From an uncultured Candidatus Saccharibacteria bacterium (GTDB lineage Bacteria > Patescibacteriota > Doudnabacteria > UBA920): 64,000 bases of DNA. The notes beneath the pieces are model-generated. The model saw only the letters and a list, made by a program, of their open reading frames with translations, did no database searches and had not been told where the DNA came from. Shown one piece after another: positions 15,103-58,902 of this stretch. How positions within the stretch are numbered: the first letter of the stretch is position 1; every line of letters starts with the position of its first letter. The stretch spans positions 549,357 to 613,356 of the forward strand of contig CAYQEU010000001.1 in the NCBI GenBank assembly GCA_964416765.1, in the 5' to 3' direction. The translations under genes were made by a program, and so were the position numbers.

Positions 15103-15196
<94 letters not shown>

Positions 15197-17303: not shown

Positions 17304-17391
<88 letters not shown>

Positions 17392-17994: not shown

Positions 17995-18070
17995 GCTTCC
18001 GTAGCTCAGTGGATAGAGCGTCTCCCTCCGGAGGAGAAGGCCGCAGGTTCAATCCCTGCCGGGAGCACCA
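17995..18070 (+). tRNA. tRNA-Arg (anticodon CCG), CCA encoded
   Basis: Acceptor GCTTCCG/CGGGAGC, D-arm GCTCAGTGGATAGAGC, anticodon stem TCTCC/GGAGA with loop CTCCGGA, T-arm GCAGGTTCAATCCCTGC, discriminator A, CCA. Confidence 0.9.
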
Positions 18071-23639: not shown

Positions 23640-24277
23640 TATTTTTTATTTCTTCTTATAAACATTATAACAAATACCGCCACAATAGCTACCGCCAACA
23701 TGACAAACACCAGGATCAAAATATTGAATAGCCTGATAGCCGGATCACCTGAGGCATTTGTGTTATTAGCATTCTGGTTGGTTGGGCTGTTGCCGTTGCT
23801 TACTGTCCCGCCGCAATCCATGGGACAGTTATTCTTGTTTTCCCCGGCCTGGGTTTGGCACGACTTATCGTCGTTGCAAATAGCCGTTTTGCTTACCGAC
23901 ACCACCAGCATCGGTTGGTTATCAACGTTGCTTTTATAAAAGGCCACGGACTTAGCGTCGCCAAAATACGGGGCTATAATCTCATTGTCCCCTTCCAAAA
24001 GATCAAAGTGAAAATCACCGAGAGTCTGGTTAGAGAGTGAAAACACGCGGCCATAATACAGGCCGGGACCGTCAACAAATTGCTCGGATATGAAATCATA
24101 GGGCAAAACATCCTTCACTATAGGGGTTAGGTTTCCGTTTTCAAAACGTAAATGGAACTTATACTCCATGGGCCCTAAATCATACGATGAGTCGGCGCTG
24201 GATTGGGCACGGGCCTGATTCGCCAAAAACAGAAGCGCAAGTAGGGCAGAAAATAACAATATCGTTGTCTTTTTCAT
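23639..24277 (-). CDS. Secreted Cys-containing protein with C-terminal TM anchor
   Basis: Signal peptide (MKKTTILLFSALLALLFLANQARA), Cys cluster (CNDDKSCQ...CPMDCGG), C-terminal TM followed by RRNKK. Confidence 0.4.
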   Translation of the reverse strand: MKKTTILLFSALLALLFLANQARAQSSADSSYDLGPMEYKFHLRFENGNLTPIVKDVLPYDFISEQFVDGPGLYYGRVFSLSNQTLGDFHFDLLEGDNEIIAPYFGDAKSVAFYKSNVDNQPMLVVSVSKTAICNDDKSCQTQAGENKNNCPMDCGGTVSNGNSPTNQNANNTNASGDPAIRLFNILILVFVMLAVAIVAVFVIMFIRRNKK

Positions 24278-26106
24278 TAGTTACCTCCTCCGCCATTAAA
24301 TTTAATGTAGCAAGCAAAAACGTACTGGGCGTACTTTTGGCCTTCCTCCACGTACTTATTGCACTGTTGGTGCCCGGCATCGGTCCACAGACATTCCCAC
24401 GACTTCACGGGGCTACCATCGCATCCGGTTTCTCCGGAACAGCTGGTATATTTGCCGTCAGCTACACGACAGTAGTCCGGCCCGCGGTTATAACCGGCGG
24501 CGATATTGCGAACCTCAACCCTCGGTTTACCGCAGGATCCGGCGGCAATAGACTGGAAATACTTAAGCGACATGCAAATTTGTTCGGTAGGATGGCTTTT
24601 GCGCCATTCACGGCTGGAATTGTAATCGTTGGAGCACTGCGGCCCGTATGTATTAGCCGCTCCGGTAGTAAATTGCATCAGACCAGCCGCACCTGTGTGT
24701 GATTCGGCATTAGGGTCACCCCCCGATTCTTGAGTCATGATAGCTTTCAAAAACGCTGAAGTATTGGCAACGCCGGGTATAGGTCCGTAGCGTGCCACAG
24801 CGGCGTCTACCTGGCCCGCCCAATTATTGACCGCGGCTATTTTGGACGCGTTAGTGCAATTACCCCCGAGCTTACCCTGACACAAATTTACGTTGCTAAA
24901 CAAACAACTCCCGCCAGGAGGAGTGAACGTACCCACGGTTTCATCACCGGAAACACTCCCCGCGCTTCCTCCAGCGCCACCACCGCCAAAATCCCCACCT
25001 TTTACACCGCCAGGATTGTTAAACGCCGTACAAAATGAGTCACTACTGGTAGTGGCACTGTCTATGACTCCCCCCACGGCACCGCCGAGCGGTCCGCCTA
25101 CCGCGCTTCCTACTGCGGCTGCCGGGTTACAATAGAGGTACAATCCCACAAAAATTGCCAATATCGTGGCTTCTATTACCATGAAATCCATAATAACGAT
25201 CCCAATCTTTTCCCACCACACAAGGCCCTGCATAACAGCCAGTTCTTTTACGAAAGGGATGGAACCCGCCGCCCAATACACATTTACCGCTGCAAGGGGT
25301 ATTACTAACCCTATTGTGGGAATAAGGGTGCCAAATATTAGTGCTCCCAGCAGGAATAAAACGAACACCACTATTTTGGTGACCGCCCTAATGAAATAGT
25401 GCATGGCTTCTTTAGGGTGGCCCTTGGCCAGTTCGATTGTACCGTCTATAGCGTCAGAAATACCCAAGCTTATTGCAATTACAATTAGCTGAGCAAGGAT
25501 TTCAGTAATACCAAAGGTTTCCAAGGCACCTGCTGCACCCAAAGCTTCTACACCTACCTCCAATCCACCCTCAACCACAGCGTCCGCGCCAATTTTCGCA
25601 CCTTGCTTTACAACCTGCTCAGTGCCTTCCTTAACAACATCCTTTGCACCCGTCTTAACCAAATTCTTTGCGCCTTTTTCCACTCCCTCCTTTACGCCTT
25701 CTTTTGCTTCGCCTTTAAAACGCTGGTTCAGGTACCTTTTGATTTCTTCCTTACCCTCTTTCTTGATGTAGTCTTTGGCCTGCTGCTTTAGTTCTTCACG
25801 GTCCATGGTAGGGCTAAACCCTGCTTTGTTAAGCTTACCCAACATACCACCGGTTTTGGAATCGAGCTTCGATAAAAGCTCTTTTCCTTTAGCAGTCACT
25901 TTTTTTCCGGCTTCAGTATTGGCTAAATAATCGGTCCCCTTAGAAAAAGCTTTCTTCTTTGCCTGATTCGCTATTGTGTCCCTAATACCCCCTGATTTCT
26001 TGGATGAACTTGAAGAATCAGAAACACCCTGGCCAGACGCTTGGACGTCTTCACCAGGGTTTATACTGTCAGCGCCCCGCCTGTTTCGAGTGTCATCAAA
26101 CAACAT
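24277..26106 (-). CDS. Polytopic membrane protein with C-terminal lytic transglycosylase (SLT, VirB1/TcpG-like) domain
   Basis: K-rich cytoplasmic N-terminus, 4-5 TM helices, Gly-rich linker, Cys-rich C-terminal domain with the SLT catalytic signature AIMTQESGGDP...GAAGLMQF. Confidence 0.65.
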   Translation of the reverse strand: MLFDDTRNRRGADSINPGEDVQASGQGVSDSSSSSKKSGGIRDTIANQAKKKAFSKGTDYLANTEAGKKVTAKGKELLSKLDSKTGGMLGKLNKAGFSPTMDREELKQQAKDYIKKEGKEEIKRYLNQRFKGEAKEGVKEGVEKGAKNLVKTGAKDVVKEGTEQVVKQGAKIGADAVVEGGLEVGVEALGAAGALETFGITEILAQLIVIAISLGISDAIDGTIELAKGHPKEAMHYFIRAVTKIVVFVLFLLGALIFGTLIPTIGLVIPLAAVNVYWAAGSIPFVKELAVMQGLVWWEKIGIVIMDFMVIEATILAIFVGLYLYCNPAAAVGSAVGGPLGGAVGGVIDSATTSSDSFCTAFNNPGGVKGGDFGGGGAGGSAGSVSGDETVGTFTPPGGSCLFSNVNLCQGKLGGNCTNASKIAAVNNWAGQVDAAVARYGPIPGVANTSAFLKAIMTQESGGDPNAESHTGAAGLMQFTTGAANTYGPQCSNDYNSSREWRKSHPTEQICMSLKYFQSIAAGSCGKPRVEVRNIAAGYNRGPDYCRVADGKYTSCSGETGCDGSPVKSWECLWTDAGHQQCNKYVEEGQKYAQYVFACYIKFNGGGGN

Positions 26107-26118
26107 GAGCGCGAAAGG

Positions 26119-27960
26119 TTAATTTATTTCTTCTTTGCTTTCCTTGATTTCCAGGAGTTGTTTCGGGTCAGTGGTAATAATTTGGTCTTCTACGTAAGAC
26201 CCATAAATTTTGATGGCGGCGTGCTTGAGACCGGCAAAGAAAATCCCTTCGCCCACATCACTTTCAAGCAAAAGATACTTTTCCCCCTCGGTCAGGAAGA
26301 ATGTTTCGGCAATAACATCAATAGCCGCTGGGCTTTGCTTAAGCAACAATTGGATGGAGGAGTTGGTTACAATTGGTTTCCCATAAGGACTGTTCATGAA
26401 ATCGGCAACGTCCTGCGTAATAGTAGTCAGGCCGAGGTAGTACTTGCGGCAGCGCTTGGCAATACCGAACACGAAGCGAGCGGAGTCTTCGTGCTGCATC
26501 ATAATCCAGGCTTCATCCAGCACCAGAATGCGCCTCTTCATTTCACTGCGCACCAAATTCCAGATATGGCCCAAAATGATATACATGGCAATCGGGCGGA
26601 GTTGATCCTCCAAATCACGAATTGAGAATACCAGGAGTTGGTTGCTTAAGGTAACGTTGGTCGGCTGGTTCAGCAATCCGGCAAAGGTACCTTCGGTGAA
26701 TTTAGTAAGGCGTTGGGCCAAGCTTTCGGCGCCAACCATTTCCCCAAGAACCTCGATAAGGTCATTCATTACCGGTGGTTCCACAGTGCGCAGATCGCTG
26801 TTTTCAGTTATATCCTTCTTGGCGTAGGTTTGCCATAAGGCCTTATCCATGAGAGCTTCTTCGGTAGGGTCCATCTTTCCCAAAATCAGACTAAACAAGC
26901 CGAGCAGGTTGATAATTCCACTGCGCAAAATGTCGGCAGTGTCTTCGTCTTCAATTGCAGCCGGGAGGTCGAATGGATTAATACGGAAGTCAGAGTTAAG
27001 AGATATATTAAGGTATGTCCCGCCGACAGCGTCGGACAAATGCTTGTACTCGTTTTCCGGGTCAACAATGATGACTTCAGTGCCCACCATGAGCGACCGA
27101 AGTACTTCGAGCTTAATAGCATACGACTTACCCGCACCGGATTTGGCAAACACGACGAAATTAGCGTTTTCCATTTTGAACCGGTCGAATAAAATTAAAC
27201 TGTTGTTATGCCGGTTAATCCCGTACAAAATGCCGTCATTCCCCGTAAGGTCCGAAGAAACAAACGGGAATGTAGTGGACAGCGGGGAACTGTTAAGGTT
27301 ATTGGCAATATCAAGCTCGTCCAGCCCAAGAGGCAGGGTAGAGTTAAACCCCTCTTCGGTCTGGAACAAAGCGCGTTTGGTAACCACCAGTTTCGCGCCC
27401 AAAGAGCTTTCCAAAATAGTAGAGCTCTTTTCCAGTTCATCTTTGCTGTTGGCGTATATGGTAAAGTAAAGGGCAAACCGGAAATACTTCTCCGTACCCT
27501 GGGATAGATCGTCACGCAATGATTCTACGTCCTGGTAAGCAGTTTGGAGAACCGGATCGCGAACCATCCCCTTTTCTTCATTTATGCTTATTTGCGAGCC
27601 AATTTCCCCCACTTTAGCCTTTAGCTTTTTCAAAATTACAGCCGAATCAATGGGATAAATGAACATGGACACATCCAGCTCACCTTCAGAGTTGATGACA
27701 AAAGACAGCCAGTTAGTTGAAAGCATACGCGGGTATGCCAGCACGAAAAAGGTACGGGCATACTTGTTGTTGAGTTGGAAGTCGTTGCTTTCAAAGTGCA
27801 AAGCCGAAGGAGCGAGCAAATCCTTCATTGTGGTCAGCCCTTCGCGGTAGTTCTTTTCCACCTCAGCAAGACGGGCATTCTCGTCTAAAGTACCCTTAAG
27901 CTTGGCCAGCTCCTGCTTTTTCTTTTCGAGATCAGTTTCGTTTAGTTTAAATAACGCCAT
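26119..27960 (-). CDS. VirB4/TrbE/CagE-family T4SS ATPase (C-terminal ATPase portion)
   Basis: Walker A (VFAKSGAGKSYAI), Walker B (ILVLDEAWIMM) and surrounding blocks typical of VirB4-type ATPases. Confidence 0.75.
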   Translation of the reverse strand: MALFKLNETDLEKKKQELAKLKGTLDENARLAEVEKNYREGLTTMKDLLAPSALHFESNDFQLNNKYARTFFVLAYPRMLSTNWLSFVINSEGELDVSMFIYPIDSAVILKKLKAKVGEIGSQISINEEKGMVRDPVLQTAYQDVESLRDDLSQGTEKYFRFALYFTIYANSKDELEKSSTILESSLGAKLVVTKRALFQTEEGFNSTLPLGLDELDIANNLNSSPLSTTFPFVSSDLTGNDGILYGINRHNNSLILFDRFKMENANFVVFAKSGAGKSYAIKLEVLRSLMVGTEVIIVDPENEYKHLSDAVGGTYLNISLNSDFRINPFDLPAAIEDEDTADILRSGIINLLGLFSLILGKMDPTEEALMDKALWQTYAKKDITENSDLRTVEPPVMNDLIEVLGEMVGAESLAQRLTKFTEGTFAGLLNQPTNVTLSNQLLVFSIRDLEDQLRPIAMYIILGHIWNLVRSEMKRRILVLDEAWIMMQHEDSARFVFGIAKRCRKYYLGLTTITQDVADFMNSPYGKPIVTNSSIQLLLKQSPAAIDVIAETFFLTEGEKYLLLESDVGEGIFFAGLKHAAIKIYGSYVEDQIITTDPKQLLEIKESKEEIN

Positions 27961-28664
27961 TATTTTGTTTCGGGGGTTAGAGTTACGTTGTCCAATTGGC
28001 TTGCGTCAATTAGAGGTGCAGACTCAAAATTATAAGAGTTGTAGATCAATTCGATGATTTGCTCAGTATTTAACTTTACGGCACGCAGCCCCATGGCATT
28101 CAAGTTGCTGACCACGCTGGTTACGCGCTCTTCCAACATGGAGCGATGGTGTTCAAAATTGGCTTCGCGTTTAGTTATGGCTTTGGCCCGGCCGCGCGCA
28201 AATAAGGAAGAAAAGAACCCGCCGCTGTCTGAACCGATACTTTCATTGTAAGGGACGACGCAGTAAAAATTCTTGTTCATGATATTCCCCGTTTCCACCA
28301 GTTGGTTGATGAACTCGATATACTCGCCAGTCTGCATGCGCAGCAACTCATTGGTCTGCTTCTCCATCATGTCCTTCAGTTTTTCGGTATAACTGCCAAT
28401 ATCCATGCGGCGGCTTTGCATGATTATCTGAATGGAAAAATCCAGCGAATTCAAAAACCGCTGGTAGGAAAATATAAGGGCGTCCTGCTCGCTTTGGCTT
28501 TTCAAGTCAAAGTTAGTGGAAGATACCGCCACCACCGCCCGCAGAGTCCCGTCATCCATAATCATGGTATCCTGCTTGATCTCTTTGGTGCGCAGGAAAT
28601 TCTGGGTGGGATTTATCGATTTATGATGTTTGTTTTGTTTTTTCTCCATCGACAATGTGTTCAA
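27960..28664 (-). CDS. VirB4 N-terminal-domain-like protein (split VirB4, translationally coupled to the ATPase)
   Basis: Pattern MIMDDGTLRAVVAVSSTNFDLKSQSEQDALIFSYQRFLNSLDFSIQIIMQSRRMDI resembles the conserved VirB4/TrbE N-terminal block. Stop/start overlap at 27960. Confidence 0.45.
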   Translation of the reverse strand: MNTLSMEKKQNKHHKSINPTQNFLRTKEIKQDTMIMDDGTLRAVVAVSSTNFDLKSQSEQDALIFSYQRFLNSLDFSIQIIMQSRRMDIGSYTEKLKDMMEKQTNELLRMQTGEYIEFINQLVETGNIMNKNFYCVVPYNESIGSDSGGFFSSLFARGRAKAITKREANFEHHRSMLEERVTSVVSNLNAMGLRAVKLNTEQIIELIYNSYNFESAPLIDASQLDNVTLTPETK

Positions 28665-29082
28665 TGAGCGAATGCTCTTCCGATGCTTGCTGCTGCAAGA
28701 GATAATTCATTTCTTTAATGCGCACCAGTGCGTTGCCTTGCGCCTTTTCCGGTGCTTCTTCCGTGATGGTCGCCTTCCCCTGGCTTTCTACCAAGCTTTT
28801 CCCTTGTTTATGGAAGACAAAATGCTTTGGCTCAAAACTGGAGCCGGCTAAGGCAAACATGGAATTATACAACGGCCTGCCATTTACCTTGATAAAGACA
28901 ATGGCCAAGGCAGGAATTCCGATAAAAACCAACACGAATATTAGTAAAAGTACGCTGTGGCTAAGGTTCCAAGTCAAAAAGGCCAGGACCCCCACACCGA
29001 ATAAAATCCCGAACTGTTTAAAGCCCAAACCCGCTACGAGTTTGTCTTCGATATCGGTAAATTGAGGGACGTTATATTGCAT
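28621..29082 (-). CDS. VirB3/PrgI-like small two-TM protein
   Basis: 153 aa, two adjacent TM helices near the N-terminus, immediately upstream of VirB4 as in monoderm T4SS operons. Confidence 0.4.
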   Translation of the reverse strand: MQYNVPQFTDIEDKLVAGLGFKQFGILFGVGVLAFLTWNLSHSVLLLIFVLVFIGIPALAIVFIKVNGRPLYNSMFALAGSSFEPKHFVFHKQGKSLVESQGKATITEEAPEKAQGNALVRIKEMNYLLQQQASEEHSLIEHIVDGEKTKQTS

Positions 29083-29109: not shown

Positions 29110-29898
29110 CTAGCTAAATTGAATTGATTTTAGCAAATCAGAGAAGGCTTCAAATTCGGCTTTAGACATCAAGCTTTTGCCTTCCCACTGTTCAGGAAAA
29201 GCCCCCGCGGGGCTGCTTAAAGCAGCGCGGCCGGTATCCAGGTATGTCTGGTATAAGAGGCTCTTCTCTAAATAAAACAGAACTTCAAAGTAATTAGAAG
29301 CCGCAACAAGTTTTTTGAGCGCAGGGATAAGTCCCCCGTCCATAGTCCTCATGCTTCCTAAGGTTAGCAGAGAGGCGTCTTTAGGCTGGTCCAACTCCTT
29401 GGGGCCTGGTGGCTCCGGTTTTACGGGTTTGGACGCGGCTTTCGGGTAAGAAACCGGCGGCTTAACTGCTCCCGCCGAAGTGACGGTTCTTTTGCCGTCG
29501 GTTAGCCGGCCTTCGGGTCTCGTGCCGGTTAATTCCTTCTCCTCCATAGCCTGACGCAAATTTGCTTCCCATTGCTTTAACGTGCCGCGCTTGCGGGACG
29601 TTGGCAAAGGAAACTTCGGCAAGTTTGAAATGTGGCTTAGGGGCATTTTCTGGGGCTGGGATGGAGTTGCGACTACGGGCGGTGTTGCCTTGGCGGGAGT
29701 AGTAGCTGGCGTGGTGGCAGGCGCTCCGGGTTTAGCAGCCGCTGATGGGCCAGGACCTTCCAAAATCGCCTGCAACTCTGAAGCCTGCTTGTCATTCATT
29801 ACAATAAGCATATCCAACCATTCCGCCTTTTCCGCGTCGCTGAGCATGGTGGAGGAATGAATCATCTGCTTAAGTTTTTCCATTTGCTGTGATTGCAT
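29110..29898 (-). CDS. Hypothetical cytoplasmic protein with Pro/Ala/Thr-rich linker
   Basis: No TM and no recognisable domain; in an operon with T4SS-like genes. Confidence 0.35.
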   Translation of the reverse strand: MQSQQMEKLKQMIHSSTMLSDAEKAEWLDMLIVMNDKQASELQAILEGPGPSAAAKPGAPATTPATTPAKATPPVVATPSQPQKMPLSHISNLPKFPLPTSRKRGTLKQWEANLRQAMEEKELTGTRPEGRLTDGKRTVTSAGAVKPPVSYPKAASKPVKPEPPGPKELDQPKDASLLTLGSMRTMDGGLIPALKKLVAASNYFEVLFYLEKSLLYQTYLDTGRAALSSPAGAFPEQWEGKSLMSKAEFEAFSDLLKSIQFS

Positions 29899-29899
29899 G

Positions 29900-31333
29900 C
29901 TAGCTTTGCTTTCTGCTTCTTAATTCGTCCAGTTTTTTGGCGATATCATCCGCGCTAGGGCCCGTTTTTATTTCCGCTGGCGCCACGGGGAGCTGGGAAG
30001 GAACTGCAAGAGCCGCCGCTTTCGAAGGCTCATTCGCTATGGGTTTTACTGCCGGTTTGTCTGCTTCTTTGTCCGCCGGTTTTCGTGATGGTGTTTCGAT
30101 CTTTGGCGCTGGGTCGAACACAATTCCTCCTCGCCCCTTTGTGCGCTGGTTCAAGAAGTCTTGGATGTTCATGGGCGGATTGGCAGTCCGGATATTCATC
30201 TCCTTGAGTTTTGCCTTAATCTCTTCATCTACTTCACTGGATTTGGGTGGTACCACTGGAGCAGGCTTGTCCTCAACTATGTAGCTTTCGGCCGGAAGCT
30301 TGGGCTTGGGTGCTGCGGGTACGAATTTGGCCGCCGGTGCCGGCTTAGGCATGGATGCCTCCACGGGTTTAGGTGGCTGGATAGGAGCTGGCTGGGGTTT
30401 TACTGCCGCAGAAGCCGGTTTGACGACGGCTGTAGGTTTAACCAATTCGGAATTGGTCACCGGTGTTGGTACACTAATCTCATACTTTTCCTCGGACGCA
30501 GGCTGAATGGGAATGTCTTCTTCGATAGGCGGAGCTATTTCAAAATGGGGTTTCAGCAACCAACGATAAAAATCAATTAATTTCAAAAATAGTTTTTTCT
30601 CTTCGGCGTTTAAGGTTTGGACGTTTTTGGACGTAGAAACGTATTTGGCTTCGTCATATGCGTCACGGCCGCTATTTACTGAAGTTAAATAGGGGCGGGC
30701 GTCTTCCAGCCAGTTCTTAATGTAAGGCAATCGCTGCCCATCAATACTGGTCAATTTGGTTGACCCTAGAATCTCTTCGTTTTGGTCCAGCGCCTGGATA
30801 AATTTTTGGGTCCAGGTTAAGTCAAAATTGGCCTGTTCAATAAGGAAGCGACGTTCAAAGCTGGCCAGCAGGTTCAGTCGGGGCAAAAAATAGAGGATGT
30901 CATTGCGCAGGATATCAGCCCATTCCTCGTCGGACAGGTCGTCAAAAACGCCAACTTCAAAAATATTAATAGCGTCAATAAGGTCTTGTCCTACCTGAAT
31001 GTCTTTGCTGTTAATCCACCCTGGCAAATCGCGCATTAAACCGATAGCATACGTGCCAAAATTAAAATCAGCGTCGTCAATGACTGTCTTCAGAAACTCT
31101 GGAACTCCACGGATATCACCGTCGTGGGCCTTTTTACCGAGGTCAGCCAGCTTTAATATGACATTAACCAAAGAATCCTTTATCAGTTCAAAATCGCTGC
31201 TGTTTATGACCTTCCAGATAAGATCCTGGGAATGCTCTCCCAAATTAGGGATTGCAGCAAGGACTGACTGCTTTTGCGCGTCAGTCCAGTTTGATTGGCT
31301 GATTAATTGTGTAAATTCTTCTATTGAAGCCAT
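29900..31333 (-). CDS. Hypothetical protein with long Pro/Lys/Ala-rich C-terminal region
   Basis: No TM and no NTPase motifs; in an operon with T4SS-like genes. Confidence 0.35.
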   Translation of the reverse strand: MASIEEFTQLISQSNWTDAQKQSVLAAIPNLGEHSQDLIWKVINSSDFELIKDSLVNVILKLADLGKKAHDGDIRGVPEFLKTVIDDADFNFGTYAIGLMRDLPGWINSKDIQVGQDLIDAINIFEVGVFDDLSDEEWADILRNDILYFLPRLNLLASFERRFLIEQANFDLTWTQKFIQALDQNEEILGSTKLTSIDGQRLPYIKNWLEDARPYLTSVNSGRDAYDEAKYVSTSKNVQTLNAEEKKLFLKLIDFYRWLLKPHFEIAPPIEEDIPIQPASEEKYEISVPTPVTNSELVKPTAVVKPASAAVKPQPAPIQPPKPVEASMPKPAPAAKFVPAAPKPKLPAESYIVEDKPAPVVPPKSSEVDEEIKAKLKEMNIRTANPPMNIQDFLNQRTKGRGGIVFDPAPKIETPSRKPADKEADKPAVKPIANEPSKAAALAVPSQLPVAPAEIKTGPSADDIAKKLDELRSRKQS

Positions 31334-31341
31334 CGATTATA

Positions 31342-34300
31342 CTAGAATGTTTTTCTATATCTTGGTTCTTTCCTCTCAAAATCGCTGCTAGGAACAATCT
31401 TCGGCTCGTCATCGTTGACTGACGCAGGATTAGGGTTGGCGTTCGGGGTGAAAGTTTGCCCTGCCGGAGCCGGAGTGCTTGGAGCAGCTTGTCCTTGTAG
31501 ATAATTCTTCCTGAATAATGCGATTTTATCGGCGGCTCTGGCCAAAGAATCGGCTTCGGTCATGTTTGGGTTCTGTTCTCTAAATGCTTTGGCCACCTTT
31601 TCGACAGCTTTAGGATCTTCACTCAAGGCTCCTTCATATTTAATTTTCTGGGCCTTGTTAACACGCGTAGCATTTTTATAATTAGTCTCATCCGCATCTA
31701 CTATAAAATGTGCGGCTCCTCCACTCATGATATACCTGTTTTGGCTGTCTTTCTCCGCAATCGCAGAATGGTGGCCATTTCGTGCAATGTCTTGAGGTTC
31801 CCATTTTCTACGCTGGGCAGTTTGATACTCATACATATCTTTCATGTCTTTGGCGCTTTCAGTGTCTCTAATTTTCAAGTTTCCACTTTTGTCACGATAA
31901 GTAAGCCCCATCAACGCCTGGTTTCGTTTGGAAAAGCCTACGCCATTTATAGATTCCAAAACGCGTGCGGCATAGTCTTCGCTAAAAATACCATGCTCAA
32001 CCTGAGCTTTCATAAAGTTAAGGATATCCTTGGATAATTCACCAGTTTTTTCGAAATGATTGTTCGCATCTTCTGAATAACGATCCATTGCGGTATTTAA
32101 GCCATTGGCTTGGGCCAAGGCTAACAAGCTTCCCGCTTGTTGAGTCATACGAGTATTGCCGCTACCTTGGTGCATACCATGAAGCAATTCCTGCACTTGG
32201 TATTCTTCATCCTTGTCTTTCATGTGGTCAGCGTGATGCGCCGCTTCGTGGTCGAGCGTGCTAAAGTACTCATCAGAAACAGGACCGCCACCCAAAAGTG
32301 TTCGTCCTCTGACTTTAATACCTTTGCGGAAAGTATCAAAGGCTTGTCCCTTAACCTGCTTCTCCTGCGCTTCCTTCTTTTCCGTATCCTGCGCTTTATA
32401 ACCTTCGTATTGACGCTTGGGCGTAAGGGCCATACCCAAAGCTTTCAAAGCGCCACCCTGCAGGCCACCCTTTCCTTCTCCTCTTTCAATTAACCTCATA
32501 GCCTGATCAGTCTTGTATCTATTGGCCCTATCAGCAGCAGCCGCACCCCCAGCCTTAGCCGCTTTCCCATACCATTCAAATGGCTTGCGCATTCCCTTTT
32601 CCGCAAAGTTGGCTACTGCTTGCCCACCGTACGTACCGGAACTGGAAGCTGCCTTAAGGCCAACCAAGATAAACAAGATAGTTAAAATTTGACTGCCAGC
32701 GAGGTAAACAAACTGTGAAATTTCCCCGCTAACTTTTTGACTGGCCAACAATTGGGAAAAAGTCCCCTGGTCACGCAGCATGGTGGTCACAAAAACCGCG
32801 GACAGGTTCAGGAAGAATGCCAAAACCGGGGTCATGAAAGCATACTTCAAAAAGTGCGTCCACCAACTTCTGGTGTAGCTGGCTGTTTGGGGCAGGACAT
32901 TCGCCACATAAGCTAGTGGCGATACTAGTAGTAATATCCAAAGGGCCACTATTCGAATTACCAGGAAAGCAGCCAAAGCCAGGAAAGTAAAGAACGCGCC
33001 CAACGCCAATGCCAAGGCGAATATAGGCTTCGTTAGGTTGGCAAACGAGGCGCCGGCCGTGGTAGCGTTGCCGGTGCTGAAGTTACTGGAGTCGGTGAGT
33101 TTGTTGATCGGCTCAACCATCAACTTGCTGCCCAAAGCGCGAATTACATTGGTGCTATCGGGCAGAAACTGTTGTTGCACGGTATCGGCAACGCCCAATA
33201 CGGCCTGGCCAAACACAAGACTAAAGTTAACCAACAAAGCCGCTATAACTACCTTAACCAGCAAGTGCTTATAGTTGTAGCTTTCCAACCGGAATAATGT
33301 ACCCAACCCAATAACCAGCAATATAACAATAAAGAAAATGTTGCAGAGGTTGCGGATGAGCTGCCACCCCAGGTAAATGGCTTCTACGAACACGTCCTGG
33401 TAAGGGTGAACCTGGAGGAGAGACTCAATTAACGGCGCTACCACGTTTGAAAACGCCCAATAAATAATTCTTACATGGGCGAGGATGTAATAAGTTAAAA
33501 TCCTATTTAAAATATCCGCGAGAGTTGAACCGGTACCCCCTAGCGTGCCACTTCCTCCGGTATTGTCAGTAGTGTCTGGCGGTTTATCTTTATCGGCTAA
33601 GTAAGCTGCTTTACCCGCATCAGTATTTGCGTAAACTTTAACATTGATTTTCCTGACAAGATCGGAAGAAACATACGCCGCTTCGGTGCTGCCCGGCAAA
33701 AGCCAATTGGAATAACCGACATATGGAAAAACGTAAAGAGTGTTGATCTGTCCTGTGTCAGAGGCTTTGTTAATTCCATAGGATTCACGGGTGGCTTTAT
33801 CTAAAACAATGTCTGTGGATGCTGGTTCATTCGCGTTTATTGTAAGATATACCGGAAATATTGCGTTGCTGGTTATAAGATATGGGGCAGCTAACTTTTG
33901 GGAACAGCTTCTAACATTAGTGCTAAAGACGACTCCCCCCGAACACAATGTCGCAGGGTCGGCGTTGGTGTATATTAGTCCGAATCCCACAATTTGCCTC
34001 GCGCTCGGCATGACCTTGTCGACATATAAATTGTCCCATCCCACACCCCCTGCGTTGTAGCCGCTTATATAAAGCTTGTCCGGCTTAACCATGGACAGAC
34101 TGGCTGTAATCTTAATAGGGCCGCTCCCCGTACCGGCTGCATCAACCGGACCATCCTTATCAACCAATACACGGAAAAAATCCCCGGGTTTAAACGGATC
34201 AATTTTTACGCCTATATCATCAACACCAAAGTTTCGCTGTGAAAGGTCGGCTTTTGCCGGATTTGAATTCGCAAAAAACACAGTAATTGCAAGCACAAAT

Positions 34301-34353
34301 ACTGTGGTAAACCCTAGGAAGATAGATTTTAGTTTTGGTTTCTTGAAAGTCAC
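31342..34353 (-). CDS. VirB6/TrbL-like polytopic membrane protein with large N-terminal ectodomain and ~470-aa C-terminal cytoplasmic extension
   Basis: GTG start, signal/anchor, ~300-aa ectodomain, then 6+ hydrophobic helices (e.g. IFALALALGAFFTFLALAAFLVIRIVALWILLLVSPLAYV), then a long charged tail containing HEAAHHADH. Confidence 0.5.
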   Translation of the reverse strand: MTFKKPKLKSIFLGFTTVFVLAITVFFANSNPAKADLSQRNFGVDDIGVKIDPFKPGDFFRVLVDKDGPVDAAGTGSGPIKITASLSMVKPDKLYISGYNAGGVGWDNLYVDKVMPSARQIVGFGLIYTNADPATLCSGGVVFSTNVRSCSQKLAAPYLITSNAIFPVYLTINANEPASTDIVLDKATRESYGINKASDTGQINTLYVFPYVGYSNWLLPGSTEAAYVSSDLVRKINVKVYANTDAGKAAYLADKDKPPDTTDNTGGSGTLGGTGSTLADILNRILTYYILAHVRIIYWAFSNVVAPLIESLLQVHPYQDVFVEAIYLGWQLIRNLCNIFFIVILLVIGLGTLFRLESYNYKHLLVKVVIAALLVNFSLVFGQAVLGVADTVQQQFLPDSTNVIRALGSKLMVEPINKLTDSSNFSTGNATTAGASFANLTKPIFALALALGAFFTFLALAAFLVIRIVALWILLLVSPLAYVANVLPQTASYTRSWWTHFLKYAFMTPVLAFFLNLSAVFVTTMLRDQGTFSQLLASQKVSGEISQFVYLAGSQILTILFILVGLKAASSSGTYGGQAVANFAEKGMRKPFEWYGKAAKAGGAAAADRANRYKTDQAMRLIERGEGKGGLQGGALKALGMALTPKRQYEGYKAQDTEKKEAQEKQVKGQAFDTFRKGIKVRGRTLLGGGPVSDEYFSTLDHEAAHHADHMKDKDEEYQVQELLHGMHQGSGNTRMTQQAGSLLALAQANGLNTAMDRYSEDANNHFEKTGELSKDILNFMKAQVEHGIFSEDYAARVLESINGVGFSKRNQALMGLTYRDKSGNLKIRDTESAKDMKDMYEYQTAQRRKWEPQDIARNGHHSAIAEKDSQNRYIMSGGAAHFIVDADETNYKNATRVNKAQKIKYEGALSEDPKAVEKVAKAFREQNPNMTEADSLARAADKIALFRKNYLQGQAAPSTPAPAGQTFTPNANPNPASVNDDEPKIVPSSDFERKEPRYRKTF

Positions 34354-34417: not shown

Positions 34418-35611
34418 TTAGCGAAGGTACCGGTCAATACATCTGCTTATATCCGCCGATATATTGGTGGTTCCTTTTATGCAGGCCTGGAATTGGTCGA
34501 TGTCGCCAAAGGTTTCCTGCTGTTTGGAATCGAGGATTGCTGAACGATTTTGGGCGTAAGCCGCTGTACAATCCGCAGCTCCCCTTTTGGCGGCTTCCTG
34601 CTGCTGTGGTGTAACCAATACAGGGTCGCTATCATATATCCCCTGGGAACTTCCATCAATACATTGGCTCAGGCCCATGCTATCCGTAGGACTATCAGGG
34701 TAGGGTAAGTCGGTGCCGCCCCCTCCGCCATTATCCTCATTGGGAGCAGCGATGTTAAGTACTCGACCCGAAGGGGCTTGGTTATCCAGACAAACCATGT
34801 CGAATGGCGCGCAACCCGCGGCCGCGTGGGAATTAATATAACCTTGAAGCGAAGGATCAGAGTAATCCCTAACCATATGAGAATATGGATTGGCAAGAGA
34901 AACGTCATAAAGAGGAGCGGCGCTGGGGTTGGAGCCCTCAGTGCCGGTGCTGACGCCTAGTACCCGGCTCGATAGCTGATAATCAGAAACCAGTTTGGCG
35001 CAAGTGCTCGCGTTGGTCTGGTCATCACACAAAGTCACGCACTTGCTTGCAGTACCGCAAGCGGCAAAGTCACGGCTAGAAAGCAAGCCAACAGCCATGC
35101 GCGTTGCTACGTCAATCATGTCCGGTTTCATGTAACCTTGTTTGACTGAGAAGGTGGCACAAAGCGGTACATGGGTAAGCTGGTCACAAAAATCCAAACA
35201 AGCTTGCTGACTAACACAGTTGTGTAATTCCGTGATTGGGTAAGTGTAACCGAGCATGTAAGTTTTGATGGGCGCGGTTGGCTGCATGTCAGAAGCGGTC
35301 ATAATAACTGCTGCCGCTCCCCCGTTGGAAGTCGTGCTAATTCCGCTCGGCTGGCCCGGGAATGGATTAACATAAATTCCCTGCAGCGGATTTGCCTGCG
35401 GATTGTCGCTCGCTCCCAACACCGTGCCTTTGTCTTCCGGCAATGAGCTCGCGCTGGACTGTGCCGCCGCCACTACATTACCAGTCACTGGCTTGCCCTG
35501 ATGGATGGCAAACTGGGTCCGCACCGACTTGACCAAGTAACTGGTCAGCCCAATGGTCATGAGTGCGGCCAGGAGCAGTAAGCTTAATTGTGTTTTTCTT
35601 TCAACGCTCAT
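34418..35611 (-). CDS. Membrane-anchored Cys-rich extracytoplasmic protein
   Basis: N-terminal TM, ~20 Cys residues; no recognisable domain. Confidence 0.4.
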   Translation of the reverse strand: MSVERKTQLSLLLLAALMTIGLTSYLVKSVRTQFAIHQGKPVTGNVVAAAQSSASSLPEDKGTVLGASDNPQANPLQGIYVNPFPGQPSGISTTSNGGAAAVIMTASDMQPTAPIKTYMLGYTYPITELHNCVSQQACLDFCDQLTHVPLCATFSVKQGYMKPDMIDVATRMAVGLLSSRDFAACGTASKCVTLCDDQTNASTCAKLVSDYQLSSRVLGVSTGTEGSNPSAAPLYDVSLANPYSHMVRDYSDPSLQGYINSHAAAGCAPFDMVCLDNQAPSGRVLNIAAPNEDNGGGGGTDLPYPDSPTDSMGLSQCIDGSSQGIYDSDPVLVTPQQQEAAKRGAADCTAAYAQNRSAILDSKQQETFGDIDQFQACIKGTTNISADISRCIDRYLR

Positions 35612-35616
35612 ATAAA

Positions 35617-37248
35617 TTATTTATTGCCCGATGTTTGATGCTGGTTCGGCAGGTTCGGGTTCGTGTTACTCAGCTGTCCTTTAAGCTGCGCCAATCCTTC
35701 GTTAATCCCTACCGGCAGCAAAGAGTTGGCGGTGTTGGAAAGGAATCCGCCAAAAGTGGTTCCGTTCTGAATGCCGAACAATTCGTCCGCTACTGTTTTA
35801 CCAAGCTTGGAAGCGATTTTGCCAGCCAGGGTTGGATGAGTGGTGTTGTATTTGGTCTGGTCGAACAATGACTGCATCCACTTATCGGAAGCATTGTGGG
35901 CTTCCTGGGCTAGAGTCTTGATGTTGCGGTCGCAAGGTTCGAGTATGCCCGTACCAACTTTATTCTGAAGGTCGTTCAGGGCCTGCACGGCGGCATTGTA
36001 AACCTGCTGCGCCTGGTCAATCTGGTCTTTGATGGCGCGGTCAACATCCGAAATTCCGGTATTGCCACCGCCCTGATTTTTCAAAATCTGCAAGGCTAAT
36101 GCAGCTTCGCCCACCTTATTAGTAGCTGCCGCCAGGTCGCTGTTGATCTTAGTTTGTTCTGCGGTCTTATCAGTACAAGTTCGGACGTTCTTAAACTGGT
36201 TGCCGGTTTGCATTTCCTGCTGAGCCAATTTGTCGCTATCAGCCAGGAAGCGGTCCACGTCAGACATCCCGGTGTATAGATGAGTTTCCGACCAGCTGCG
36301 TTCGTCCCCGGCGTCGGAGACTTTGCCCCAGTAATCAGGGCTTGTCCAGTCCAGCGTGTCCGCGGAAACCTGGTATTTACTGGCTTCAACAGCGGCCAGG
36401 TTCTTGGCAGTAGTAAGTCCGGTCACATCACCCAGTACCTGATTCTTGTATAAGGATGCCGCAATCAACCGGGTCCGTTCATTTCCTTTAGCGGACTTGT
36501 TGATTTCCTGGATGCCATAGATTTGGCTTTGCAATGCTTGCTTGAGCAGGTCAGGGTCACGGTTACCCAATACACTACTTAGTGTCTTGATGCCGCGAAT
36601 GGAAGCTTCCTGCTGCACCGCCATGGTAAAGTTGTACATTATTCCTTCGAACACGTCGGAGAAAGCCTGGTCCTCTTGCTGTTCGTATTGGGCAAGTTGG
36701 GTCTGCAAGTCAGCTTTCTTTTGGTTGATGATAGTGCGGTTATGTTCGATGTTATCCGACTGGGAGATACTCGCGCCTTTTGCGTTGTCTACCGCGATAG
36801 AAAGCGGTACCCAGCAAGCGGTAAGTTGGTTCAATGTCGAATCAACTTTGTAGGCCGGGAAAAACGTATTGCTTACGTCTGTTTTGTCAGAACCAGCAAT
36901 AACTTTGCCAGCCCGGTCGGCCAAGTCCAAAAAGATATTTGAATCGTTAAACTTATCACAGTAAGTCGGGTTGAGGAGCTGGTCAGTTACCACGCGTTCC
37001 CAAGGGGTACCGTCGGCCACAAATTTAGCGGTGCTAACAGCAGCGTTGGTTGTCGTCGAAACAGAAGTGACACCAGTAGTAACGGTGGTAGCCGCTCCTT
37101 CAATTTCTTGAGGGGGATCTGCGCAAAAGAATGGTGGGCAGGGAATTCCGAAAACGGCTTTTGTTTGATGGTGCGGATATACCAGACCTCCACAAACAAT
37201 ACTCAAGACTAGAATTGATATTGAAATTCTCTTAAAAACCAACATCAT
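35617..37248 (-). CDS. Secreted coiled-coil protein (T4SS-associated, function unknown)
   Basis: Signal/anchor, CPPFFC motif, long Q/A/L-rich predicted helical regions. Confidence 0.4.
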   Translation of the reverse strand: MMLVFKRISISILVLSIVCGGLVYPHHQTKAVFGIPCPPFFCADPPQEIEGAATTVTTGVTSVSTTTNAAVSTAKFVADGTPWERVVTDQLLNPTYCDKFNDSNIFLDLADRAGKVIAGSDKTDVSNTFFPAYKVDSTLNQLTACWVPLSIAVDNAKGASISQSDNIEHNRTIINQKKADLQTQLAQYEQQEDQAFSDVFEGIMYNFTMAVQQEASIRGIKTLSSVLGNRDPDLLKQALQSQIYGIQEINKSAKGNERTRLIAASLYKNQVLGDVTGLTTAKNLAAVEASKYQVSADTLDWTSPDYWGKVSDAGDERSWSETHLYTGMSDVDRFLADSDKLAQQEMQTGNQFKNVRTCTDKTAEQTKINSDLAAATNKVGEAALALQILKNQGGGNTGISDVDRAIKDQIDQAQQVYNAAVQALNDLQNKVGTGILEPCDRNIKTLAQEAHNASDKWMQSLFDQTKYNTTHPTLAGKIASKLGKTVADELFGIQNGTTFGGFLSNTANSLLPVGINEGLAQLKGQLSNTNPNLPNQHQTSGNK

Positions 37249-37988
37249 AGCACCACTCCGTACTGCGCGCTTAACTGGACGCGCGTTGTTTTGATTTTAT
37301 CGCCGAGGGAATAAAACAACGATGCGGCGGAAACCGCGTTGTCGTCCGGTCCATTTGGCGACATGCTTAACGCCATCTGGGCAAGCGAAGTATAATAAAC
37401 AATTTTCATCCGGTGAAACTGCTCAAACTGGGAAGGAACTTTGAGGTTGCGCAATTCCGCGACAACCGCTTTATAAGTTTGCGCGGAACTTTCCAAGCTT
37501 TGCGGGTCGCGGCCGGACAAAGCACCAATGGCAAAGTTGGTGCCGTACTGGCTTTCAATTTGGTGCAGTTGTAGCGCGTAATCATTCAAGTCATAACGGT
37601 CGTTGGTTTGGTAAACGTTCAAAGGCAATGAAGTAACCAGATCGGAATTCAAAACTTCCTCAGTGTCGACGCTGGTATCAAGCCCCGTGCTGGCGCCAAG
37701 AACCGCGCCGGGAGCGGACATGGTTGGGTCAAGCTCAGCGAGCTGCGATTGGGTCTGCCCATCATCGGCGGAACCCTGAGCGCCGCCCTGCTTCGCTAAA
37801 ATTTCCCGCGCCTGCGCTAGTGCTTGTTCGTAAGTCATGCCTGGCTTGTCGGCCTTGGCATGGCCAAAATTAAAAGCGCCTAAAGTGAAACCGCCGCGCA
37901 TGAACAAAGCCGCGGTTAAAGCAACGACGCTTAAAACAATAAGTTTAATGTGGCCTCTGGCAAAAGAGGTCCCGGAATCAGATTCCAT
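37245..37988 (-). CDS. Membrane-anchored hypothetical protein, first gene of the block
   Basis: N-terminal TM (IKLIVLSVVALTAALFM); preceded by an extended -10 TGCTATAAT on the minus strand (about 38062..38070). Confidence 0.4.
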   Translation of the reverse strand: MESDSGTSFARGHIKLIVLSVVALTAALFMRGGFTLGAFNFGHAKADKPGMTYEQALAQAREILAKQGGAQGSADDGQTQSQLAELDPTMSAPGAVLGASTGLDTSVDTEEVLNSDLVTSLPLNVYQTNDRYDLNDYALQLHQIESQYGTNFAIGALSGRDPQSLESSAQTYKAVVAELRNLKVPSQFEQFHRMKIVYYTSLAQMALSMSPNGPDDNAVSAASLFYSLGDKIKTTRVQLSAQYGVVL

Positions 37989-58510: not shown

Positions 58511-58902
58511 GGGGATGCCGGATTTTGACAAGACGGAAACCTCAATTGATATGCAAGACGAGCAAGCATTCTAACTCGCAAATCTGGTATGCAACAATAA
58601 ATGCTAACGCATTTTCTAAGGTAAAGGAAGCTATGGCTTTGGCCTTCGCTCCTGTACCTGTACTCGCCTAACATAACTGGCTAGTACCCTGGCCCTCAGG
58701 TCTCCCTGCTTGAGGACCACCAGGTTCATTTTGGGATATAGCTTTATGGTTTGATTTACGCCGTAAAGTGGAACATTGGTAAATCAACTTTTGTTCTTAG
58801 CTGTCCACCGCTTGGGCAAAAGTACTTTGATGGACTAATCTTGTGACCAATCAGTTTGGGAATTTGTTTTGGACGCGAGTTTAACTCTCGCCATCTCCAC
58901 CA
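58511..58902 (+). ncRNA. ssrA: tmRNA (SsrA), ~392 nt including encoded CCA
   Basis: 5' GGGGATGCCGGATTTTGACAAGACGG and 3' GGACGCGAGTTTAACTCTCGCCATCTCCACCA closely match the E. coli tmRNA termini. Acceptor pairing GGGGATG/CATCTCC, T-arm GCGAG-TTTAACT-CTCGC. UCGCAAA resume-codon context, as in E. coli. Confidence 0.85.

Follow-up and report, generated by a model that had tools for sequence, protein, structure and literature searches.

The window, by which we mean the whole 64,000-nucleotide stretch of DNA that was analysed, very probably carries VirB4, the motor ATPase of a T4SS, in a natural, anciently split form of the TrsD/TrsE type (pGO1/pSK41). The split virB4 is situated in a chromosomal MPF-FATA-like T4SS locus of a bacterium of the Patescibacteria (CPR). 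The pair of genes encodes proteins of 229 and 613 aa (Table 1). The former would correspond to the first subdomain of the VirB4 N-terminal domain, made as a separate protein, and the latter would combine the second half of that domain with the ATPase domain bearing the Walker A and B motifs. The two-gene VirB4 is real, natural and conserved and, being already described for the Patescibacteria and for some Gram-positive plasmids, it is ordinary.

Table 1. Features of the virB4 region (window coordinates)
Feature	Position	Strand	Details
609-aa membrane protein with C-terminal SLT lytic transglycosylase domain (VirB1-like)	24277..26106	-	directly downstream of virB4; PF01464, E 3.6e-12, residues 450-544
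Short VirB4 (TrsE/TraE-type) gene	26119..27960	-	613 aa; second half of N-terminal domain and RecA-like ATPase C-terminal domain
VirB4 C-terminal ATPase domain	26173..27252	-	residues 237-596 of the 613-aa protein; matches 4ag5
Walker B	26512..26529	-	ILVLDE, residues 478-483 of the 613-aa protein
Walker A	27124..27147	-	AKSGAGKS, residues 272-279 of the 613-aa protein
Second half of VirB4 N-terminal domain	27331..27807	-	residues 52-210 of the 613-aa protein; PF03135
Gene junction TAATG	27958..27962	-	stop TAA 27962..27960 and ATG 27960..27958; 1-nt overlap
TrsD-like gene	27960..28649	-	229 aa; corresponds to the VirB4 N-terminal domain up to about residue 200 (first subdomain)
Alternative TTG start of the TrsD-like gene	28664	-	upstream; would give 234 aa
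PrgI-family (VirB3-like) small membrane protein	28621..29082	-	directly upstream; PF12666, E 7.5e-10, 39.7 bits (cut-off 27)
1003-aa protein with TrbL/VirB6 domain	31342..34353	-	same cluster; PF04610, E 3.6e-6, 27.4 bits (cut-off 25.9), residues 369-553

The gene pair and its junction

Both reading frames, 27960..28664 and 26119..27960, are present on the minus strand. The sequence-only reading took the former for a 234-aa gene. The frame indeed exists, but the TTG at its beginning is probably a wrong start, as the close homologues of the small protein, all of them 227–232 aa long, start at the position corresponding to the ATG at 28649; the 229-aa product is thus preferred.

The two genes abut, as had been read from the sequence. 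The junction is ...AAA TAA TGG CG..., with one base shared by the stop of the small gene and the ATG of the ATPase gene, and stop codons occur upstream of this ATG in its own frame. Such TAATG geometry is typical of translational coupling. The order of genes on the strand is PrgI (VirB3-like) – TrsD-like – VirB4 – SLT (VirB1-like), the PrgI gene overlapping the TrsD-like gene by 29 nt. Given the common strand, the gene order and the overlapping stop and start codons, co-transcription and translational coupling of the genes are most likely, and would provide matched amounts of the two products.

The order PrgI – TrsD-like – VirB4 is seen also in L001, pSK41 and the megaplasmids considered below. 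The cluster is surrounded by housekeeping genes (RRF, GatA/B, IleRS, ArgRS, RecO, RecG, RadA and tmRNA). A scan of 37 of the window ORFs of at least 150 aa revealed neither a relaxase nor, VirB4 itself apart, any match of the VirD4/TraG type.

The TrsD-like protein

The small ORF was said to bear a pattern typical of the VirB4/TrbE N-terminal region, and the motif, DDGTLRAVVAVSSTNFDLKSQSEQDALIFSYQRFLNSLDFSIQIIMQSRRMDI, is indeed located at residues 32–84 (in the 229-aa numbering). The length of the protein, in the range of about 200–230 aa, and its place, after a VirB3-like gene and before a short virB4, are those of TrsD. The NCBIfam TrsD/TraD model (NF041427) matches it at positions 22–142 of 201 with 25.8 bits against the cut-off of 200 (E 7.8e-6), and its homologue P0058 matches the same family with E 4e-7. 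The profile comparison with TrsD of pSK41 gives a weak match (E 0.0046, probability 7.5%). As the NF041427 score is far under the cut-off and the pSK41 match is weak, the kinship with the staphylococcal TrsD is distant. Judged by these profiles, the 229-aa protein is a distant relative of the TrsD/TraD family and not an equivalog.

A local Pfam scan of the protein yielded no match; the precomputed domain PF26593 ("TraC-like") is found in each of its top 120 homologues, one of which, P0001, is 99% identical. None of the top 120 homologues of the large protein has this domain. Neither the sequence of the small protein nor its profile gave a match in the PDB, and the best match of its predicted fold is TrwK. 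All of the best 120 homologues are 209–240 aa long; among the best 150 cluster representatives (50% identity), 148 have 157–443 aa. The two N-terminal-domain halves have similar β-α-β-αα-β-α-β strings and give a weak BLAST match, but an internal duplication is not supported (hhalign E 0.021, probability 2%).

The short VirB4

The ATPase domain of the 613-aa protein is homologous to solved VirB4 structures. Residues 237–596 match 4ag5, the C-terminal domain of VirB4 from Thermoanaerobacter pseudethanolicus, with E 1.2e-46, and there is also a match to residues 446–735 of TrwK (E 2e-4). The Pfam domains seen in the protein are P-loop_TraG, AAA_10, DUF87 and CagE_TrbE_VirB. The score against PF03135 is 23.4 bits (cut-off 21), and this match spans only profile positions 46–196 of 204.

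The earlier description of the pair as an N-domain ORF and an ATPase ORF is therefore to be corrected in part: the small ORF does correspond to the N-terminal ~200 residues, but the large one retains the second half of the N-terminal domain. At that, the 613-aa protein does not have the complete N-terminal and ATPase domains combined in one polypeptide of about 800 aa. Of its best 120 homologues, 115 are 612–624 aa long.

Complementarity with full-length VirB4

Aligned to full-length VirB4, both ORFs match, and their matches are complementary, colinear and do not overlap. On the VirB4_plasma model (NF045975) the small protein takes positions 88–237 and the large one, 266–893 of 894. On the CD1110 VirB4-like model (NF045971) these are positions 2–122, as seen via the small-protein homologue P0041, and 158–728 of 752; on TIGR00929, positions 21–179, again via P0041, and 209–724 of 792. 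By this mapping, the break is situated inside the VirB4 N-terminal domain, at about positions 180–210 of the 792-position TIGR00929 model, and not at the boundary between the N-terminal and ATPase domains. Taken together, the two proteins have the domain content of one full-length VirB4.

Two fused relatives have the same arrangement in one polypeptide. In P0223 (898 aa), residues 1–212 match the small protein (35% identity, E 4e-44) and residues 323–890 match the large one (54% identity). In P0260 (797 aa), the respective segments are 8–208 and 226–796. Such fusions are rare; each has one copy of either part, in the same order.

By analogy with the R388 TrwK/VirB4 structures and from general VirB4 biology, a complete VirB4 protomer is expected to form by non-covalent association of the two polypeptides. 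Once rebuilt, it would oligomerise and be docked to the membrane via PrgI/VirB3, and the docked VirB4 would power assembly and/or substrate transfer. The AlphaFold2 model of the concatenated pair (842 aa; pLDDT 58.7, pTM 0.44) is too poor to judge the interface.

A different role of the small protein may be considered. It could be an accessory paralogue, that is, an adaptor or regulator sharing ancestry with the VirB4 N-terminus and evolving separately, the 613-aa protein then being a self-sufficient short VirB4. The latter alone passes the CD1110 cut-off (350.7 bits against 325), short VirB4s such as TraE of pSK41 are commonly regarded as the VirB4 of the system they belong to, and Quiñonero-Coronel et al. 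2025 (PMC12102498) report that the TrsD homologues of the Gracilibacteria are not associated with virB4. However, the 613-aa protein lacks the first ~150–260 profile positions of every full-length model, exactly those supplied by the upstream protein, and the fused relatives hold each part only once, in that order. Moreover, no full-length VirB4 is found beside the TrsD-like gene in the 72 loci compared below, and a TrsD homologue is reported as essential in S. epibionticum ML1 (PMC12102498). Hence we consider a separate accessory role quite improbable and prefer the split VirB4.

If TrsD and a short VirB4 make up one canonical VirB4, the predicted role of TrsD is that of the first N-terminal subdomain, probably at the VirB3/membrane-docking side. 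Annotators and modellers should then treat the pair of a TrsD-like protein and a short VirB4 as one protomer.

Conservation of the split

The orthologous loci of related genomes show the same split. The two genes are fused in none of the 72 species-level relatives: in each, a stop codon of its own ends the small gene and a separate start codon opens the ATPase gene. The split form is also present in hundreds of database clusters. The gap between the two genes in the 72 loci varies from -4 to +1886 nt, and all three relative frames are seen. In 38 loci there is an overlap of -1 or -4 nt or a short spacer of 1–30 nt. Tight coupling is not universal, since a gap of more than 200 nt separates the genes in roughly one relative out of four; some 12 loci have another small gene inserted between the two. 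All 80 genome loci come from Patescibacteria-type MAGs, the closest being labelled as Saccharibacteria, Doudnabacteria or Patescibacteria, and the closest relatives of both window proteins are likewise from Patescibacteria genomes.

The sequence-only reading had offered two explanations of the split. That of a natural two-gene VirB4 is borne out by the colinear mapping and by the recurrence of the split, with varied junctions, in every relative. The other was a frameshift or pseudogenisation of a single gene, to which an assembly indel in this genome may be added. As this explanation would have it, the ORFs directly adjoin each other in different frames, and short C5 and A4 runs are situated just upstream of the junction. 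However, the large ORF has its own ATG exactly at the junction, with the stops upstream in its frame, and the 72 related species share the split while differing in spacers and frames. Independent assemblies agree, with one protein of 229 aa that is 99% identical and proteins of 613 aa that are 93% identical to those of the window. Further, pN relative to the closest relative is 0.086 for the small gene and 0.065 for the large one at a saturated pS of about 0.85, and the resulting pN/pS of about 0.1 indicates that both genes are under strong purifying selection. On these comparisons, a frameshift, pseudogene or assembly error is refuted at the comparative level, and we give it practically no credence.

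Programmed ribosomal frameshifting at TAATG, producing a fused full-length VirB4 besides or instead of the two products, might be suggested by the 1-nt overlap in an A-rich context (AAAATAATG), but it is hardly conceivable, as the relatives have spacers of 1–37 nt with further in-frame stops, all three relative frames and, in some cases, an intervening gene, and with junctions so variable in frame, stops and inserted genes no slippery site or stimulatory structure is common to the family.

With the split being natural, VirB4 half-genes that abut in a CPR genome should not be taken for pseudogenes or misassemblies in genome scanning.

Comparison with plasmid systems

TrsD and TrsE of pGO1 are equivalent to TraD and TraE of pSK41 (and of the pIP501 family), and belong to the staphylococcal/enterococcal MPF-FATA conjugation system. 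As in the window, the order in pSK41 is a VirB3-like gene, TrsD of about 227 aa, a short VirB4 (672 aa) and then, further downstream, a cell-wall hydrolase. The breakpoint is also common: residue 11 of the large window protein aligns to residue 6 of TraE, and trsD (227 aa) is directly upstream in pSK41. On the other hand, the ATPases are very distant (23% identity), the hydrolase has an SLT domain in the window and CHAP in the pSK41 type, and the window locus, unlike the pSK41 type, is chromosomal, situated among housekeeping genes and with no relaxase or coupling protein among the ORFs scanned.

Counterparts of both halves, at about 30% identity, also come from megaplasmids of the Bacillota and Actinomycetota. 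In pGspE55-1 of Geobacillus, pJFP838A of C. perfringens and in Miltoncostaea, PrgI is followed by a homologue of 312–337 aa and then by a DUF87 ATPase of 636–661 aa. These triads have the gene order and the breakpoint of the window, but their small protein is longer due to a C-terminal tail, and the context is different, featuring a sigma factor, TlpA and Tad/T2SS-F genes. The plasmids are non-mobilizable.

The single-polypeptide VirB4s, namely TrwK of R388 (7o41/7o42), the CD1110 family of clostridial elements and VirB4 of the Mycoplasma ICE (NF045975), differ from the window in that the latter uses two polypeptides.

A more speculative possibility, which we regard as rather unlikely, is that the PrgI – TrsD-like – short-VirB4 triad with its fixed breakpoint represents an ancient lineage of T4SS motors, spanning chromosomes of the Patescibacteria, non-mobilizable megaplasmids of the Bacillota and Actinomycetota and plasmids of the pGO1/pSK41 type. 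The N-subdomain would then be a separately dosed or exchangeable adaptor for assembly or membrane docking, and not just a passive piece of a split protein. If this were the case, the small genes repeatedly inserted exactly between the halves, together with the rare re-fusions (P0223, P0260), would be traces of fission and fusion still under way.

The T4SS of the Patescibacteria

The window locus belongs to the family of chromosomal T4SS of the Patescibacteria with TrsD beside virB4 (PMC12102498), with no substantive difference. The descriptions of this family and of SEML1_0006-0019 in S. epibionticum ML1 (Wang et al. 2023, PMC10633639) list PrgI, TrsD-like, VirB4, VirB6 and VirB1-like proteins, as in the window; the systems of PMC12102498, as presented there, are also from the same phylum, chromosomal and with no relaxase nearby.

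A literature search for the phrase "split VirB4" retrieved no papers, TrsD is not named in the main text of Guglielmini 2014, and the papers on pELF and pNP40 had no bearing on the matter. The accessible text of PMC12102498 does not state the exact complementarity of TrsD and short VirB4 or the breakpoint common with plasmids. According to the same text, TrsD homologues are the most abundant T4SS component in the Patescibacteria, 2,272 in number, of which 1,664 are associated with virB4; TrsD is usually adjacent to virB4 and is described as having remote homology to the N-terminal portion of VirB4 and no assigned function. The Patescibacteria T4SS is essential for the epibiotic lifestyle in one tested species, S. 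epibionticum ML1.

The TrsD-like gene and virB4

The sequence-only reading gave two adjoining ORFs, 27960..28664 and 26119..27960, the latter encoding an ATPase with Walker A and B motifs. Both are present, on the minus strand: AKSGAGKS (Walker A) and ILVLDE (Walker B) are at residues 272–279 and 478–483 of the 613-aa protein, and the VirB4/TrbE N-terminal pattern quoted for the small ORF is found verbatim in its translation. The exact abutment also holds. The junction is AAA-TAA-TGG, with one A shared by the TAA of the small ORF (27962..27960) and the ATG of the ATPase ORF (27960..27958). However, the length of 234 aa corresponds to a longer reading from a TTG start. Since close homologues (227–232 aa) start at the position that corresponds to the ATG at 28649, the true small gene is most likely 27960..28649 (229 aa), which shares 29 nt with the PrgI-family gene upstream of it. 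The ATPase ORF cannot be extended, because stops in the same frame lie just upstream of its start.

The small protein has no match in the local Pfam copy, and neither it nor its profile matched any PDB sequence. In NCBIfam, it maps N-terminally on full-length VirB4 models and hits 'TrsD/TraD family conjugative transfer protein' (E 7.8e-6, far under the curated cut-off). The precomputed Pfam annotation of its homologues in the database is PF26593, 'TraC-like'. The large protein matches Pfam P-loop_TraG, AAA_10 and DUF87; its residues 237–596 match TrwK of R388 and, with E 1.2e-46, 4ag5, the crystal structure of the C-terminal domain of VirB4 from Thermoanaerobacter pseudethanolicus.

Position of the breakpoint

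On full-length VirB4 models the two proteins cover complementary, colinear segments, the small one being the N-terminal part and the large one the remainder. In VirB4_plasma (NF045975, 894 positions) these are 88–237 (E 1.6e-11) and 266–893 (E 4e-80); in the CD1110 family (752 positions), 2–122 and 158–728; in TIGR00929 (792 positions), 21–179 and 209–724, the small protein being placed in the latter two via its homologue P0041. Between them, the proteins contain each VirB4 segment once and in the right order. The proposed division into an N-terminal-domain ORF and an ATPase ORF needs correction: positions 46–196 of the 204 in CagE_TrbE_VirB (PF03135) remain in the ATPase ORF, where residues 52–210 match above the gathering score. 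Since the model segments are complementary and the large protein retains this partial match, the breakpoint lies within the VirB4 N-terminal domain and not at its border with the ATPase domain. An origin of the two halves of this domain by internal duplication is unsupported (hhalign E 0.021, probability 2%).

Both proteins also have weak, colinear matches, all under the cut-off, to the actinobacterial NCBIfam model SCO6880_fam (477 positions): small-protein residues 170–224 to 244–299 and large-protein residues 97–213 to 363–477. This hints that Streptomyces may encode the entire VirB4 N-terminal domain separately, with the break at another position.

Conservation of the split

For the small protein, the 120 top-ranking database clusters come from Patescibacteria metagenomes; every one is 209–240 aa long, with 58–99% identity. 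The small-protein profile retrieved 3,091 relatives from 1.84 billion cluster representatives; 148 of the best 150 have 157–443 aa. The only long forms among these 150, P0223 (898 aa) and P0260 (797 aa), are both matched N-terminally. Both are true fusions: in P0223, residues 1–212 align with the small protein at 35% identity (E 4e-44) and residues 323–890 with the large one at 54% identity, and in P0260 the respective segments are 8–208 and 226–796. For the large protein, 115 of the top 120 relatives have 612–624 aa, and PF26593 is absent from all 120.

When a single genome was scanned for each species, 80 loci were obtained, all in MAGs labelled Saccharibacteria, Doudnabacteria or Patescibacteria, 72 of which hold both genes. 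In all 72 the small gene has its own stop codon and the large gene its own start, nearly always ATG, with a product of about 614 aa in nearly all; no fused gene occurs among them. The two genes are separated by −4 to +1886 nt: 7 pairs overlap, 31 are 0–30 nt apart, 14 are 31–200 nt apart and 20 more than 200 nt. All three relative reading frames are represented. At non-synonymous sites the small gene differs from that of the closest relative by 0.086 and the large gene by 0.065, while synonymous sites are saturated (∼0.85); both genes are under purifying selection. Hence the natural two-gene VirB4, one of two options in the sequence-only reading, is supported by the same split in orthologous loci. 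A conserved programmed frameshift is excluded by the three relative frames, the variable spacers and the intervening genes in relatives. The other option, frameshift or pseudogenisation of a single gene, is refuted along with an assembly indel by the homologue lengths, the separate stops and starts and the divergence pattern.

In about 12 of the 72 loci another small gene lies exactly between the two. By eye, one type (∼120–135 aa) resembles four-helix-bundle/23S-rRNA-intervening-sequence proteins and the other (∼87–138 aa) is a GxxExxY-type (PD-(D/E)XK-like) protein. Since two unrelated families recur at the same site, it may be an insertion hot spot.

Several relatives have atypical virB4 genes. 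Upstream of the usual start, the open frame continues for about 500 codons in L054:4677-8018 and for about 200 in L045:2194-4644, and L038:4647-7271 has a C-terminal extension of about 260 aa. In L025:4669-6990 and L040:5156-6157 no single frame holds the whole gene; an interruption, an insertion or a faulty assembly could account for this.

Possible assembly of the protomer

The pair adjoins a VirB3-like gene. Given the TAATG overlap here and an overlap or a gap of at most 30 nt in 38 of the 72 relatives, the two genes are probably co-transcribed and translationally coupled. The two proteins would associate and rebuild a VirB4 protomer, which may oligomerise and dock at the membrane through PrgI/VirB3, much as TrwK docks with its N-terminal domain in the R388 structures. 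A concatenated-chain model of the pair (pLDDT 58.7, pTM 0.44) is too poor for use.

Plasmid systems and published arrangements

The order in pSK41 is like that in the window: a VirB3-like protein, trsD (227 aa) and the 672-aa DUF87 protein TraE. Window ATPase residue 11 aligns with TraE residue 6, hence the breakpoint is the same. Megaplasmids of Geobacillus, Clostridium perfringens and the actinobacterium Miltoncostaea, typed as non-mobilizable, encode PrgI, a 312–337-aa small-protein homologue and a 636–661-aa DUF87 ATPase with the same start point, at about 30% identity in both halves. This triad may be a non-conjugative T4SS-like module shared with CPR. Besides the triad, both Bacillota loci have a gene for a sigma factor of the ECF type and one for a TlpA-like disulfide reductase; the locus in Geobacillus also has T2SS-F/Tad-like genes. 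A clostridial plasmid has the fused 797-aa form, whose residues 29–192 match the small-protein profile.

The two-gene arrangement is already known in Patescibacteria and pGO1/pSK41-type plasmids. A survey of type IV secretion across Patescibacteria (Quiñonero-Coronel et al. 2025, PMC12102498) names TrsD homologues as the commonest component of these systems, with remote homology to the VirB4 N-terminus. It reports 2,272 of them in the phylum, 1,664 being virB4-associated; elsewhere TrsD is confined to the pGO1 subclass of MPF-FATA. TrsD has no assigned function there and is listed as essential in S. epibionticum ML1, whose essential cluster was described by Wang et al. 2023 (PMC10633639). The pair in the window thus exemplifies an arrangement already published for the whole phylum. 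That TrsD and the short VirB4 are exactly complementary, with one breakpoint across these lineages, was not found stated explicitly in the passages covered; it amounts to a small clarification rather than a discovery.

Genomic context

The window is chromosomal, with genes for RRF, GatA/GatB, IleRS, ArgRS, RecO, ClpB, RecG and RadA. A 787-kb relative contig likewise has the order PrgI – 230 aa – 614 aa, followed downstream by RadA and RecG. The 37 window ORFs scanned yielded neither a relaxase nor a coupling protein.

Features of the window and of related loci (L-coordinates are local)
Feature	Position	Strand	Remark
TrbL/VirB6-domain protein	31342..34353	-	1003 aa; first in secretion cluster
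Two proteins without database matches	between VirB6-domain and PrgI genes	-	
PrgI/VirB3-like	28621..29082	-	followed by TrsD-like gene, virB4
TrsD-like	27960..28649	-	229 aa; ATG at 28649
virB4 ATPase	26119..27960	-	613 aa
SLT-domain membrane protein	24277..26106	-	609 aa; directly downstream of virB4
DUF11-repeat protein	43947-45743	-	598 aa
Fibronectin-III/purple-acid-phosphatase-N protein	59910-63908	-	1332 aa
tRNA-Ser-GCT	15103-15196	+	
tRNA-Ser-TGA	17304-17391	+	
tRNA-Arg-CCG	17995-18070	+	
tmRNA	58511-58902	+	Rfam 120 bits; absent from ARAGORN output
Intervening small gene, relatives	L033:4693-5191, L035:4672-5101, L056:4687-5142, L062:4681-5110, L070:4669-5162		
Intervening small gene, relatives (continued)	L037:1542-2022, L040:4678-5162, L049:1663-2189, L053:4678-5147, L057:4687-5177, L059:3407-3896, L068:2826-3311		
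Megaplasmid triads	L002:5600-8761, L003:5596-8902, L086:4562-7988		

The SLT-domain protein, rich in Lys and Glu towards its N-terminus, has several hydrophobic segments and a Gly-rich stretch. Its C-terminal SLT lytic transglycosylase domain (residues 450–544) is Cys-rich, and the protein looks like a membrane-anchored VirB1-like enzyme. Five minus-strand cluster ORFs (262, 477, 397, 543 and 247 aa; 29110-31333 and 34418-37988) have no Pfam match and may encode T4SS components specific to the lineage; Pro/Ala/Lys low-complexity tracts abound in the 262- and 477-aa proteins. Large fibronectin-III and DUF11-type proteins are common in reports of CPR cell-surface proteins, and the two in the window are probable surface proteins. 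The GTG predicted as the start of the RecG ORF (18009) lies within the tRNA-Arg gene.
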